64,000 nt of DNA from Escherichia coli (GCF_044647545.1 NZ_CP172818.1), one strand, 5' to 3'. Positions 750 through 35,705 are shown, counted from the stretch's first letter. Translations and numbers: made by a program. Notes: generated from the letters alone by a model not told the origin.

Positions 750-3145
<2,396 letters not shown>

Positions 3146-3165: not shown

Positions 3166-3648
<483 letters not shown>

Positions 3649-3654
3649 CCGCGC

Positions 3655-3660
3655 ATTATA
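3655..3660 (-). promoter_or_regulatory. Candidate -10 hexamer of the S10 operon promoter
   Basis: Minus strand reads TATAAT followed by a GC-rich discriminator (gcgcggg); no recognisable -35 lies upstream, where the sequence is an anomalous GC-rich tract. Confidence 0.45.
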
Positions 3661-3848
3661 CTGGGGGGGCGGGCCGCGCCGCGCGGGGGCGCTTGTTCGC
3701 CCTCTCTGCACGGCTGGTGTCCGGCAGTTCGGCCCGTCTCTGGTCGGTTTTTCTGGGTGAAAGGTGGCGGCCGCGCGATTTACGCGTGCCCGCCCCCCCC
3801 CCCTTACTCTGGTCAGGTCTTTTGTTCTATCATGGGAGTTTGGGCTAA

Positions 3849-4170
3849 TCGATTCCCCTGATCGGTTTAGCCGATGCGTTATGGGGGGCGATTATTGGTT
3901 ACGGCACATTCGCTGTCATTTACTGGGGGTATCGCATTCTGCGTCATAAAGAAGGATTAGGCTATGGTGATGTGAAGTTTCTCGCCGCCCCCTTGGTGCC
4001 TGGCATACATCCTATCGACTGGTTTTCCTTGCTGCCTTCATTGCTTGCCGAGCCGTAGTTCATTGGTCTGCTCATGAGAGGAAAAGAGTCATTAAAAAAT
4101 CTCCCGCTGCCGTTGTGGGAGCATCTTCTGCGCGAACTGACGGGTTTCGTTGTAGGCTGGGATAGTTATG
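3849..4170 (+). pseudogene. gspO: Decayed 3' remnant of a prepilin peptidase (GspO/PilD family) gene; no start codon, frameshifted
   Basis: Open frame 3849..4058 translates ...LADALWGAIIGYGTFAVIYWGYRILRHKEGLGYGDVKFLAA, containing the conserved GxGDVKxLAA motif; the expected following LGAW is encoded 2 nt out of frame after a C5 run at 3987..3991. Confidence 0.55.
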
Positions 4171-4181
4171 CTGGCAGGCCG

Positions 4182-4658
4182 TTAATCTTTAACTTTTATT
4201 TGTGATTGCAGGTAATTTTGTAGACCGATTTTACCGATGAGATCCAGCTCAGTTTCGAGCCAGTCAATATGACCTTCTTCATCGGCAAGGATCTCGATCA
4301 TCATATCACGGCTAACATAGTCATGAACGCTGTCGGCATACGCGATAGCCTCACGGAGATCCTTAGCGCCTTCCAGTTCTAATCGCAGGTCGGATTGCAG
4401 CATCTCCTCGACATCTTCACCAATCCCCAGTTTGCCTAAATCCTGTAAGTTGGGGATTCCTTCTAAAAACAAAATACGCTCGATATATTTATCAGCGTGT
4501 TTCATCTCATCGATAGATTCATGGTATTCGACGTCATTGAGACGCATCAGGCCCCAGTTTTTAAACATCCGGGCATGGAGAAAATACTGATTGATTGCGA
4601 CAAGCTCATTTCCCAATAGTTTATTGAGATAATTTATGATTTTAACATCACCTTTCAT
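4182..4658 (-). CDS. bfr: Bacterioferritin
   Basis: ORF contains [37 protein letters not shown]...; start set at the internal Met for a 158-aa product. Confidence 0.9.
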
Positions 4659-4729
4659 TTTTAGTCCCTCCGCTTCCACTATTAGAGCGTAGATGGGGCT
4701 AGCGGGATGTCAAAAAATAAGCGTGGGCT

Positions 4730-4924
4730 TCAGGCAATCTCTTTAAATTCTGGCATCTGCATCAACTCGTCCTGCATCACTTCGCGCGCGGCGCGAATGC
4801 ACTTACCGCATTGATTTCCCACAGGAATAAACTTACGCAATTGTTGGAAAGATTGCGGATGAAACTGACGTACTGCCTGGCGAATTTTTTTGTCACTTAC
4901 ACCATTACACAAACAAACGTACAT
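4730..4924 (-). CDS. bfd: Bacterioferritin-associated ferredoxin
   Basis: 64 aa ORF MYVCLCNGVSDKKIRQAVRQ... with Cys pattern of a 2Fe-2S BFD-like domain. Confidence 0.9.
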   Translation of the reverse strand: MYVCLCNGVSDKKIRQAVRQFHPQSFQQLRKFIPVGNQCGKCIRAAREVMQDELMQMPEFKEIA

Positions 4925-5034
4925 GATTGCTCCCGTTCAAATTCTGCGCAAAGTGTAAATGAGAATGGTTATGATTACAATAGCACAATTTTATTTGCGC
5001 CATAGTTCAGCGAGGAACGACAAAACGGGCAAAA

Positions 5035-5052
5035 AGGGCGCCGAAGCGCCCT
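5035..5052 (-). terminator. Rho-independent terminator at the end of the str operon (after tufA)
   Basis: GC hairpin agggcgccgaagcgccct; on the minus strand it is followed by a T-run, 30-45 nt downstream of the tufA stop. Confidence 0.7.
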
Positions 5053-5080
5053 TTTCAATTCAAAACTAATTAACGAGTAA

Positions 5081-25201: not shown

Positions 25202-25765
25202 TCAGCGATGCAGGAAATTAGCCAGCAGTTGATGTCCTTGTTCGCTGAGAATACTTTCTGGATGGAACTGCACACCTTCCAGATCCCACTGGCGATGGCG
25301 AATCCCCATAATCTCGCGGGTTTCGCTCCAGGCCGTCACTTCAAAGCACGCTGGTAATGAGTTAGGTTCCACCACCAGCGAATGGTAGCGTGTCACGGTA
25401 AGTGGATTTGCCAGCCCCCGAAATACGCCCTCACCGCTATGTGTAATCGGCGAGGTTTTGCCGTGCATGACCTTTGCGGCGCGCACAACTTTGCCACCAA
25501 ATGCCTGCGCCATTGCCTGATGACCGAGGCAAACGCCAAGAATCGGCAAGCACCCGACATAGTGGCGAATAACGTCAAGGGAGATCCCGGCTTCATCTGG
25601 CGTACAGGGGCCGGGTGAGATGACAATTTTTTGTGGTTTAAGGGCGTCGATATCCGCCAGCGTCAACGCATCGTTGCGCTTAACCAGCACATCCGCCCCC
25701 AGTTCACAAAAGTACTGGTAGAGGTTCCAGGTAAAAGAATCGTAGTTATCAATAAGCAGGATCAT
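25202..25765 (-). CDS. pabA: Aminodeoxychorismate synthase glutamine amidotransferase subunit
   Basis: 187 aa [31 protein letters not shown]... with GVCLGHQ catalytic Cys motif. Confidence 0.92.
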
Positions 25766-25796: not shown

Positions 25797-26399
25797 TTAC
25801 TCAGATTCCCCGGCTTCGCTTACCACTTTGCTAAATATCATCTGCAGTGCGGTGAGATCCCCCATTGCCCCACTCTGATTTGCCTGATTCCAGGCCTCTT
25901 TTTCGATACCCTGCCAGCTCAGTTGGTAGCCCGCATGAATCGCTAGTTGCTCGAAGAAGATCCGCTGTGCCAGACCACTTCCCACCCGGAAGGGATGCAG
26001 CACGTTGATTTCACAATAGTAATGCGCCAGCCGCTCGACGAACTTCGCTTTCTTCAGGCCAACCAGATAACCTTCTTCCTCCAGATCCTGCATCAGGGCA
26101 TTGCCCTCTTTTTCGATATAAGCAAAGTGGCAGAACGGCGTATCTCCCTGATAAATATCGACTTCGCGCAGTTGCCCCGCCCAGTCGAAAATATCCTGAT
26201 ACAGCTGGCGATGGATAGTGCGCAAATGCGGTAAACCGCGCACCAGCGGACCAAGCTCAATGGTCGCAGCACGTAGCGCCGTCATTTCGTAAGCGGCCTG
26301 TTCCAGCCGCTGCTGCTGGCGGATGTTCAGCCGGTTACGCATGATATCAAGGCCTGGATAAAGATACGGATCGCGCCCTTCGCCGAATTTATCGCTCAT
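25797..26399 (-). CDS. fic: Fic-family protein (cell filamentation protein Fic)
   Basis: 200 aa [32 protein letters not shown]...; Fic-motif region reads [12 protein letters not shown]. Confidence 0.85.
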
Positions 26400-26556
26400 A
26401 GTGCCCCCTCAGCGCTTCAAGACGCGCTAAAGCCTCTGCGGCAGTAAGAGTGACTAAAGGCATCTCGACGCCTTCAAGACGGCGACTGGCCTGGAAATTA
26501 CGATTACGCTGAAGCTCCCAGAGACGGGACTTTTGCTTATCGGTGAGTTTCTTCAC
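26389..26556 (-). CDS. yhfG: Small protein YhfG (Fic partner / putative antitoxin-like protein)
   Basis: 55-codon ORF from GTG with GGAGG-like RBS; stop overlaps the fic start; absent from the ORF track because under 60 aa. Confidence 0.65.
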
Positions 26557-26660
26557 TTGATGCCTCCCTGAACGTGTCCATTTGCCACAAGTATAAGCGG
26601 CAAATCCGGGTTACGCCGGGAGAGCAGAAGCGCGGGCAAGATTGCCCGCGCGAGAAATCA

Positions 26661-34386: not shown

Positions 34387-34554
34387 ATGAACAAATTTAT
34401 TAAAGTTGCACTGGTAGGTGCGGTACTGGCTACGTTAACTGCATGTACTGGTCATATTGAAAACCGTGATAAGAACTGCTCTTACGACTACCTGCTGCAC
34501 CCAGCTATTTCTATTTCTAAAATCATTGGCGGTTGCGGTCCTACTGCACAGTAA
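34387..34554 (+). CDS. yhfL: Small lipoprotein YhfL
   Basis: 55-codon ORF MNKFIKVALVGAVLATLTACTGHIENRDKNCSYDYLLHPAISISKIIGGCGPTAQ with lipobox LTAC; below the ORF-track size cut-off. Confidence 0.7.
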   Translation: MNKFIKVALVGAVLATLTACTGHIENRDKNCSYDYLLHPAISISKIIGGCGPTAQ

Positions 34555-34619
34555 GTCTCTGACAGAAATTGGCTGATGCTGATTTATTGCCTGCGCCCTC
34601 GGGTTTCCGGGGTCCAGAA

Positions 34620-35705
34620 TTAAACGTCGGCAATACTCTCGCGCAAAATCCGCAATACCGTCTCTTCACCGCTGCGATTTGGGTTAATACGAATCGCGTA
34701 ATGTTCGAGTTGCGGATTCGCCTGGCGAAACGTTCCGGAAAGTCGATAAAAAAGTGGCGGAATTTCATATTTCGACTCCGCGCCCACCGGATACGGCAAC
34801 GCGCCGCGTTTCTGCGCCTCCTCCAGCACCCTGGCGGCAATCGGCTGATGAAACTCGACAATCAACACCTTCGACTGTGCATTGGCAATGACGGCGCTTT
34901 TCACTTCCGGAACTGCACCACCGTTGAGCAAGGCCAGCAACCGCTCAGATACCCCCGCCTGCACCGCGTGCATCACTGGCGCAAACACCAGCCCACGCAA
35001 GACTTCCAGCGCCTGAGCGCCCTGAATCTGGCTGCCGCCGGAATAGAGCGTGGCGCGAATACGGTTAATAACATCAGCATCGCCTACCACCGCGCCAACA
35101 CCCTCTGGCCCAAATAGCTTGAAGCAGGAAAATGTCGAGACATTCGCCCCGCATTCACAGCCAATGCTCGCCACCTTCATCACCGCATAGTTGTCATCGG
35201 TTAAGACTGGAACCCCTGCCGCGCACAACGTTGCCAGCACATCTGCCAGTACATAGCTGTCCTGCGGCTGCTGGCGCGTATGCTGCACCAGCGCCGCATC
35301 CGGTTGTTGCTCGTCGACGACCTGCTTAAGTGCCGACAGGTCATTGAAATTAGCAGTAATAAGCGTCAGCCCCATCTGCTCAATAATGACCTGAGTCGTC
35401 GGGTAAACCGGCGCGTCATGCACCAGAAGACGCTGCCCCGGTTTGAGCAAAGCCGCCAACGCCGCACGGATCGCGCCAGTACCCGCGCCCTGTACCAGCG
35501 CCGCAGCCTGTGCGTGAAACGCGTCAGCCAGCACCTGTTCCACACGCTGGGTAATGCGCGGTTGATTCAGTCCCGGCGTTAATCCCAAATCACCGCAGGT
35601 AAGAAATTCGCTACCAGGAAAATGGCGACAAATGCTATCCACCAGCGCAAACTGCTTTTGCTGCGCCTCAATAATCGTCAGGCTTTGCAGAGGAAACGTC
35701 TTCAT
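34620..35705 (-). CDS. yhfS: PLP-dependent enzyme YhfS (uncharacterised)
   Basis: 361 aa ORF; last gene of the yhfZ-yhfS same-strand block. Confidence 0.8.
   Translation of the reverse strand: MKTFPLQSLTIIEAQQKQFALVDSICRHFPGSEFLTCGDLGLTPGLNQPRITQRVEQVLADAFHAQAAALVQGAGTGAIRAALAALLKPGQRLLVHDAPVYPTTQVIIEQMGLTLITANFNDLSALKQVVDEQQPDAALVQHTRQQPQDSYVLADVLATLCAAGVPVLTDDNYAVMKVASIGCECGANVSTFSCFKLFGPEGVGAVVGDADVINRIRATLYSGGSQIQGAQALEVLRGLVFAPVMHAVQAGVSERLLALLNGGAVPEVKSAVIANAQSKVLIVEFHQPIAARVLEEAQKRGALPYPVGAESKYEIPPLFYRLSGTFRQANPQLEHYAIRINPNRSGEETVLRILRESIADV

Follow-up and report, generated by a model that had tools for sequence, protein, structure and literature searches.

A clade-wide degenerate FIC motif in the core-genome yhfG-fic pair of Escherichia coli, and what its active site may still do

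The subject of this study is the yhfG-fic gene pair in a 64,000-nucleotide stretch of an Escherichia coli chromosome (NZ_CP172818.1; hereafter the window), and in particular the activity that its Fic protein, which departs from the canonical signature motif, might have. E. coli Fic is the founding member of the Fic family, and its being without a known activity more than 30 years after discovery gives the pair its residual interest. Older genetics tied fic to p-aminobenzoic acid (PABA) and folate. The closest described system is the same gene pair in K-12, EcFicT/EcFicA, in which the motif, the 11-nt gene overlap and the neighbours are identical to those of the window, the differences being allelic only. 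Stanger, Harms, Dehio and Schirmer (2016) solved the crystal structures of this E. coli Fic-YhfG complex (PDB 5JFF and 5JFZ) and classed it as a class I Fic pair (PMC5033356). The signature motif of EcFicT was called ‘somewhat degenerated’, and no auto- or target-adenylylation was found, even with the inhibitory glutamate mutated (YhfG E28G); the missing adenylylation (AMPylation, transfer of adenosine monophosphate, AMP) was attributed mainly to leucine at the site of the arginine R1 and to a hydrophobic residue where the Mg2+-binding acid would stand, while the Asn-to-Ser change was noted in about half of the close homologues (PMC5033356). The complex is a stable 1:1 assembly with a melting temperature (Tm) of 63 °C and an interface of 1641 Å2, in which YhfG S24 and E28 contact Fic R146, E28 through a salt bridge; the E28G mutation lowers the Tm by 10 °C (PMC5033356). 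Vertical inheritance of the pair within the Enterobacteriaceae, a conserved hydrophobic groove proposed to bind substrate (A36, T40, Y67, F71 and V139), and fic knock-outs as viable as the wild type were also described (PMC5033356). The degenerate motif, the YhfG partner, the structure of the complex and the inference of non-AMPylation are thus already known, all of them being in print since 2016.

Among the solved homologues that have a canonical motif, the closest is Fic-1 of Pseudomonas bijieensis 2P24 which, as in EcFicT/YhfG, is a class I Fic with a small partner, AntF (PDB 8WT0; PMC13327609). Since the alignment with EcFicT is gap-free over residues 1-196 (E 7.7e-49), the two share their numbering (H135 and R146, with S24 and E28 in the partner), and 8WT0 and 5JFF superpose with a root-mean-square deviation of 0.898 Å (PMC13327609). 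The motif of Fic-1 is the canonical HPFREGNGRAQR, whereas EcFicT has V139, S141 and L143. Chen et al. (2026) reported that Fic-1 AMPylates GyrB on Tyr111 and described the complex of Fic-1 with AntF as a deAMPylase (PMC13327609). The same class I FicT/FicA architecture, with an inhibitory glutamate on R2, is found in VbhT/VbhA of Bartonella schoenbuchensis (3SHG, 3ZC7 and 3ZCB); VbhT shares 33% identity with EcFicT, and there are three helices in VbhA as against two in YhfG (PMC5033356). Unlike EcFicT, VbhT acts as a canonical AMP-transferase on gyrase and topoisomerase IV and has a C-terminal secretion domain; the window Fic matches the NCBIfam VbhT model at E 6e-40, which is well below the model’s cut-off. 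On the conjugative plasmid p1UC20804 of Acinetobacter baumannii, the plasmid-borne relative that was read, a YhfG-family gene with S..LEG in its product lies directly upstream of a Fic of about 200 residues, some 48% identical to the window Fic. Unlike the window pair, this module has a canonical motif (HPFREGNGRTQR), a 12-nt gap without overlap, and a mobile element as its location, and it is such plasmid-borne FicT/YhfG modules that represent the family’s ordinary toxin-antitoxin form. That the FIC fold can change its chemistry along with its signature has precedents in the kinase Doc, the phosphocholine transferase AnkX, and those Beps that have Glu at G2. AnkX still uses R1, for cytidine diphosphate (CDP)-choline (PMC5033356), and some Beps have been proposed to act as deAMPylases. 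These proteins have other motif changes and other partners, Doc and AnkX being set apart here by their descriptions, and none has, as EcFicT does, a hydrophobic residue at both the acid and R1.

The pair in the window is, with essential certainty, the chromosomal, core-genome yhfG-fic operon of E. coli (EcFicA/EcFicT). That these are real genes, rather than chance open reading frames (ORFs), follows from their matches to Pfam, NCBIfam and the PDB. Thus, Fic scores 52.7 bits against PF02661 (cut-off 24; E 8e-14) over residues 58-152, which makes it a member of the FIC domain superfamily, and 429.5 bits against the equivalog model NF007672 (cut-off 181; 1.6e-129) over residues 1-200 of 200. YhfG scores 85.6 bits against PF10832 (2e-24) and 124.8 bits against the equivalog model NF007573 (cut-off 77; 9.7e-37) over residues 1-55 of 55. 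The best PDB matches are 5JFZ_A/5JFF_A for Fic (1e-133) and 5JFF_B for YhfG (1.5e-29). The neighbour order, argD-pabA-fic-yhfG-ppiA-tsgA, matches annotated genomes. The 760-bp locus is 100% identical to that of E. coli FDAARGOS_497, a genome with an annotated fic, and about 98% identical in DNA to K-12; it was found in 5425 of 5426 complete E. coli genomes, nearly always as a single, chromosomal copy. Most of these records are 95-99% identical to the window locus and only 62 of the 5425 reach at least 99%, therefore the window belongs to an allele group that has been sequenced less often (Fic K116; YhfG A48/G51). Compared with K-12, the only substitutions are E116K in Fic and E48A and S51G in YhfG, all at sites that vary within the enterobacterial clade, and by alignment the crystallised proteins of 5JFF/5JFZ are seen to differ from the window alleles at variable surface positions only.

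Compared with the canonical HxFx(D/E)GNGRxxR, the signature loop of the window Fic has valine (Val139) for the acidic residue, serine (Ser141) for asparagine and leucine (Leu143) for the first arginine, while His135, Phe137, Gly140, Gly142 and Arg146 are retained. The canonical AMP-transferase signature, with its acidic Mg2+ ligand, Asn and Arg R1, is therefore absent. An earlier note on this DNA had pointed to these three changes and had taken them to speak against standard AMPylation. The residues were confirmed at positions 135-146, with no misreading revealed by the alignment, and the expectation matches the published negative results on near-identical proteins (PMC5033356). The note had also raised the possibility that the motif is specific to this strain, which has to be abandoned. 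K-12, a divergent E. coli allele (about 95% DNA identity) and 5JFF/5JFZ all have the identical motif, and the same class of substitutions occurs in all 113 full-length clade representatives. Moreover, a motif of the type HPFR[V/L/I/F]G[S/N]G[L/M/I]AQR is present in all 120 nearest clusters at 90% identity, which come from Escherichia, Salmonella, Citrobacter, Klebsiella and Leclercia; three single-sequence variants differ at further positions. At the scale of the family, the canonical motif prevails (115 of about 150 nearest cluster representatives at 50% identity), and the degenerate state is restricted to essentially one cluster and fragments of that cluster. On these alignments, E. coli and a whole clade of the Enterobacteriaceae have the degenerate motif as their norm.

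The partner and the layout of the operon are conserved to a similar extent. YhfG supplies the inhibitory helix, with the pattern [S/T]xxxE[G/N], as a separate small protein encoded upstream, which is what defines a class I Fic pair; the Fic toxin/antitoxin-like arrangement that had been proposed earlier for this locus agrees with the published assignment (PMC5033356). Also upheld are the small overlapping partner gene, its GTG start and its ribosome-binding site, but its end does not lie inside the fic start codon. Rather, the ATG of fic occupies 26399-26397 and the TAA of yhfG 26391-26389, so that the two frames overlap by 11 nt (ATGAGCGATAA), an arrangement that presumably couples their translation. 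The 11-nt overlap recurs in Salmonella, Klebsiella, Leclercia, Cronobacter, Pluralibacter and Enterobacter, and is 8 nt in Kosakonia; the ATGAGCGATAA junction itself was read in six of the other enterobacterial loci. In eight such loci (Salmonella, two Klebsiella, Leclercia, Cronobacter, Pluralibacter, Kosakonia and Enterobacter) the order ppiA-yhfG-fic-pabA-argD is kept, with yhfG of 55-56 codons and fic of 200 codons, and in every genus examined pabA follows fic on the same strand with a spacing of 31 nt. Within the inhibitory helix, L27 is found in all 121 aligned YhfG sequences (the query and 120 homologue clusters), and S24 and E28 in 120 each. The sole loss of E28 is in an E. coli cluster of two sequences (P0278), otherwise identical to K-12, whose E28G is the same change as that engineered in the crystallisation mutant.

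Selection on the pair was estimated from pairwise ratios of nonsynonymous to synonymous divergence (dN/dS), which are approximate given that dS is saturated between the compared genera: 0.04-0.12 for fic, 0.07-0.20 for yhfG, 0.05-0.09 for pabA and 0.02-0.03 for ppiA. Between E. coli and Salmonella, dN is 0.095 for fic and 0.097 for pabA. Across the 113 cluster representatives, which are 79-98.5% identical to the window protein, 89 of the 200 Fic positions are invariant. A decaying pseudogene is ruled out by this number, together with a dN/dS comparable to that of pabA.

For the active site, the 113 clade representatives were compared with 112 canonical relatives; as the latter were chosen by their motif, only positions outside 135-146 count as independent observations. 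H135, F137, G140, G142 and R146 are invariant in both sets, and N132 is found in 112 of the 113 clade sequences and in all 112 canonical ones. From the canonical set to the clade, position 139 changes from E/D to L/I/V/F, 141 from N to S or N, and 143 from R to L/M/I. In the pocket, E36, F67 and Y71 give way to A, Y and F, and in the target-docking flap T79, S/A83 and K84 give way to E, Y and Q. The set A36/T40/Y67/F71/E79/Y83/Q84 is fixed or near-fixed in the clade.

An intermediate state was found in a Cronobacter sakazakii-type contig (2661-3263), which has the same ppiA-yhfG-fic-pabA locus. Its motif, HPFRIGTGRAQR, is hydrophobic already at 139, and its flap is of the EcFicT type (E79/Y83/Q84), while R143, E36, F67 and Y71 are still canonical. 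In this sample the order of substitution suggested by the sequences is that the acid and the flap changed first and that the R1 pocket (R1/E36/F67/Y71) changed later as a correlated block. Taken together, the canonical relatives, the Cronobacter intermediate and the low identity (below 60%) of the true plasmid relatives argue for vertical descent of the EcFicT clade from canonical enzymes. Two further sequences were set aside. In a 2.7-kb metagenome contig, a 200-residue in-frame yhfG-fic fusion (P0122; positions 1011-1613) lies between ppiA and pabA; it joins an N-terminal piece of YhfG, some 30 residues long and reaching only into the start of the inhibitory motif (SSRLD where SRRLE would be expected), to a Fic part that begins near residue 45, has the motif HPFFVGSGRAQR, and, being either a deletion variant or an assembly error, was given no weight. 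A 48% identical sequence that has lost the histidine (P0129; positions 2501-3139 of a contig from Logan SRR18107612) was rejected as a dead Fic: its systematic R-to-C, P-to-F/L and H-to-Y changes and its in-frame stops form a bisulfite-like pattern, and it is therefore probably a database artefact of C-to-T converted reads.

As to mobility, yhfG-fic does not show the patchy, mobile distribution that is typical, although not strictly defining, of type II toxin-antitoxin systems. Unlike typical modules of this kind, it is part of the vertically inherited core genome, at a fixed locus. There are 895 plasmid records that match, but the true plasmid-borne relatives among them are all below 60% identity. 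The plasmid and phage matches at 69% identity or more proved, where they were opened or could be identified from record length (which leaves aside two short unannotated ‘phage’ records, H53 and H54), to be chromosomal sequence filed in the wrong collection; they include several 4.8-5.4 Mb PLSDB ‘plasmids’ that are entire chromosomes (H27-H29 and H32 among them) and large Salmonella genome contigs filed as phage. Another of them is NZ_CP069919.1, an 11.3-kb linear record named ‘plasmid unnamed8’ of Klebsiella oxytoca FDAARGOS_1334, which holds an E. coli chromosomal segment with the order nirD-nirB-tsgA-ppiA-yhfG-fic-pabA-argD-yhfK-crp and with K-12-identical accessions for Fic, YhfG and PabA; it is probably a contamination or a misassembly. 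The PADLOC candidate-defence model PDC-S04 matches Fic at 4.5e-75. A location in a mobile element or a defence island was rejected, given that the examined high-identity plasmid and phage matches are chromosomal and that the PADLOC match is to a candidate Fic model only.

With a probability of roughly 0.6, we favour the reading that EcFicT is a diverged FIC enzyme which carries out phosphodiester chemistry with a substrate other than adenosine triphosphate (ATP), on a new target, and which is gated by YhfG; this includes the version of Stanger et al. Fic and YhfG are most likely made together from their overlapping frames, under a stationary-phase (sigma-38) promoter, and form a tight 1:1 complex in which, as the crystals of near-identical proteins show, the YhfG helix places Ser24 and Glu28 on Arg146 in the active site. 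The FIC fold itself is normal, but its loop is without the Arg R1 that serves the ATP β-phosphate (now Leu143) and without the Asp/Glu that serves Mg2+ (now Val139). Because these two residues are lost, and in line with the published result (PMC5033356), EcFicT does not AMPylate. At the same time His135, the glycine anion nest, Arg146, Asn132 and YhfG Glu28 are held by strong purifying selection, and the new pocket (A36, T40, Y67 and F71) and flap (E79, Y83 and Q84) are fixed in the clade. A conserved catalytic set, newly fixed groove residues and a remodelled flap, rather than mere loss, point to an active site that would still be in use.

Several points weigh against this reading. No enzymatic activity, ligand or target has been shown for EcFicT, and we infer that it is still an enzyme from conservation. 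Knock-outs grow like the wild type (PMC5033356), and the saturation of dS mentioned above loosens the ratios from which purifying selection is read. Moreover, YhfG Glu28 could be conserved for the stability of the complex alone, considering what E28G does to its Tm, and the conservation of His135 could be structural.

One rival explanation is that catalysis has been lost altogether and that Fic, along with YhfG, has been retained for binding or regulation, for instance of a stationary-phase or cell-division partner. Such a pseudoenzyme or scaffold would account for the disappearance of two charged residues from the active site, for the attempts in which no activity was found and for the viable deletion; furthermore, the classical fic-1 allele, G55R, which affects a residue remote from the active site, behaves like a gain of function, and two conserved surface patches have been described outside that site (PMC5033356). 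G55 is invariant in the 113 clade sequences. A pure scaffold, however, would not need all of His135, both anion-nest glycines, Arg146, Asn132 and YhfG Ser24/Glu28, which are invariant or nearly so, and the new invariant lining of the pocket next to the loop (A36, T40, Y67 and F71) resembles a remodelled ligand site rather than decay, so that we regard this explanation as unlikely. The reverse idea, that only the forward reaction has been lost, is brought up by the result on the homologous Fic-1-AntF complex, which opens a concrete test of EcFicT-YhfG function. By analogy, EcFicT-YhfG might be an obligate two-subunit hydrolase (a deAMPylase or, for other nucleotide monophosphates, a de-NMPylase), in which Fic His135 and YhfG Glu28 would together remove AMP or another nucleotide monophosphate from modified proteins, and it would then be a vertically inherited demodifying enzyme and not a toxin-antitoxin system. 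DeAMPylation of GyrB by Fic-1-AntF needs only Fic His135 and AntF Glu28; the Fic-1 mutants E139A, R143A and R146A keep it in the complex, although E139A and R143A lose AMPylation (PMC13327609). The pattern in EcFicT matches these mutants: the two residues needed, H135 and YhfG E28, are present and conserved, S24 is kept as well, and V139 and L143 stand at the other positions. Asn132 of the adenine pocket is conserved, and the pocket was reported to be present (PMC5033356). In addition, a very stable complex, a conserved overlap and vertical inheritance are more in keeping with an obligate heterodimer than with a toxin whose antitoxin is labile. As for substrates, canonical FicT modules able to make them are common on plasmids (the 895 records above, with the true ones below 60% identity), and accessory Fic groups differ among E. 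coli lineages (PMC10790755). If true, the pair could repair damage by incoming plasmid-borne FicT toxins, or reverse modifications made in stationary phase by the cell’s own non-Fic nucleotidyl transferases. Nevertheless, loss of the forward reaction alone would leave the newly fixed hydrophobic groove (A36, Y67 and F71) unexplained, and the flap, with T79E, S/A83Y and K84Q relative to canonical FicT, argues against the same docking on GyrB. Moreover, E. coli K-12 is not known to have a Fic AMPylase with a product that would have to be reversed. On balance we consider a demodifying role rather improbable. No proposal of such a role for EcFicT, and no assay of it, was found in the literature: the discussion of the Fic-1-AntF paper does not draw this connection, turning its attention to proteins that have Glu at R2 (PMC13327609), and the two reviews found to cover both EcFicT and deAMPylation draw no link between them.

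What remains is the conventional interpretation, in which free EcFicT is a growth-inhibiting AMP-transferase neutralised by YhfG as in a type II toxin-antitoxin system. The small upstream partner with SRRLEG, the homology to VbhT/VbhA and Fic-1/AntF, the ‘FicA/YhfG family antitoxin’ label that some copies bear in RefSeq and the PDC-S04 match (4.5e-75) would all suit it. Against it, R1 and the acidic residue are both missing, and the equivalent single mutations in Fic-1 abolish AMPylation and toxicity (PMC13327609); adenylylation went undetected even with YhfG E28G (PMC5033356). Furthermore, the pair belongs to the core genome, at a fixed housekeeping locus and with vertical inheritance, and the examined plasmid and phage matches at 69% identity or more are misfiled chromosome. 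We therefore hold this interpretation to be very improbable indeed, and prefer the diverged, YhfG-gated enzyme with a new substrate and target to all three.

The coordinates of the locus are collected in Table 1.

Table 1. Position of the yhfG-fic genes and of the associated sequence features, numbered from the first nucleotide of the window
Feature	Coordinates	Strand	Remarks
pabA	25202..25765	(-)	Co-oriented; 31 nt downstream of fic; conserved neighbour
fic (EcFicT)	25797..26399	(-)	200-aa ORF, ATG start; class I FIC-domain protein
FIC signature loop codons, H135-R146	25962..25997	(-)	Degenerate (V139, S141, L143); from translation
fic codon 55 (GGT, Gly)	26235..26237	(-)	Wild type in the window; changed to Arg in the classical fic-1 allele (G55R)
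yhfG stop/fic start overlap, ATGAGCGATAA	26389..26399	(-)	11 nt; sequence reading
yhfG (EcFicA)	26389..26556	(-)	55-aa ORF, GTG start; inhibitory-helix partner of Fic
YhfG S24-G29, SRRLEG	26470..26487	(-)	[S/T]xxxE[G/N] inhibition motif; sequence reading
GGAGG ribosome-binding site	26563..26567	(-)	6 nt upstream of the yhfG GTG; sequence reading
Inferred fic promoter core	26584..26595	(-)	TATACT, -10-like, at 26595-26590; transcription start at 26584 by arithmetic from the published fragment
GC-rich hairpin, GCGCGGGCA-atct-TGCCCGCGC	26630..26652	(-)	Just after the ppiA stop; sequence reading

Expression of the pair can be related to published work. A 256-bp fic promoter fragment (-157 to +99) has been studied, and the promoter was found to be strictly sigma-38 dependent (PMC3089606). 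The published primers and the BanI site of that fragment map to 26741-26486, which by the fragment’s numbering puts +1 at 26584, just upstream of yhfG. This start and the TATACT hexamer are both a short way downstream of the GC-rich hairpin. A scan for the sigma-70 consensus had no match at the inferred fic promoter and gave nothing useful upstream of yhfG. The hairpin after the ppiA stop is a probable ppiA terminator, which would separate ppiA from the yhfG-fic unit; it was not reported by a terminator scan that required a T-run. We recognise dps, osmY, otsA/B and wrbA as members of the RpoS regulon. It is beside these genes that fic and yhfG have been listed as hubs under multiple stresses (PMC9501238).

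Some observations concern the rest of the window. Despite several ribosomal-protein operons, the 64 kb contain no match that attains the gathering score of an Rfam family. Between rpsJ and tuf (3313-5080), the interval from rpsJ to bfr holds no gene other than a short one for a prepilin peptidase (3691-4158), and the interval from bfd to tuf is empty; in K-12 these two places are presumably taken by the gsp type II secretion cluster and chiA, which, if so, are absent from this strain. Further along, yhfL and yhfS are adjacent (junction 34387-34661). This contiguous form is shared by 2101 of 5426 genomes; a query across the junction splits into separate places in the majority of E. coli genomes, a K-12 derivative among them. 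In K-12 the junction is presumably occupied by the frl fructoselysine operon. The yhfL-yhfS region also has an indel of about 41 bp between the window and FDAARGOS_497.

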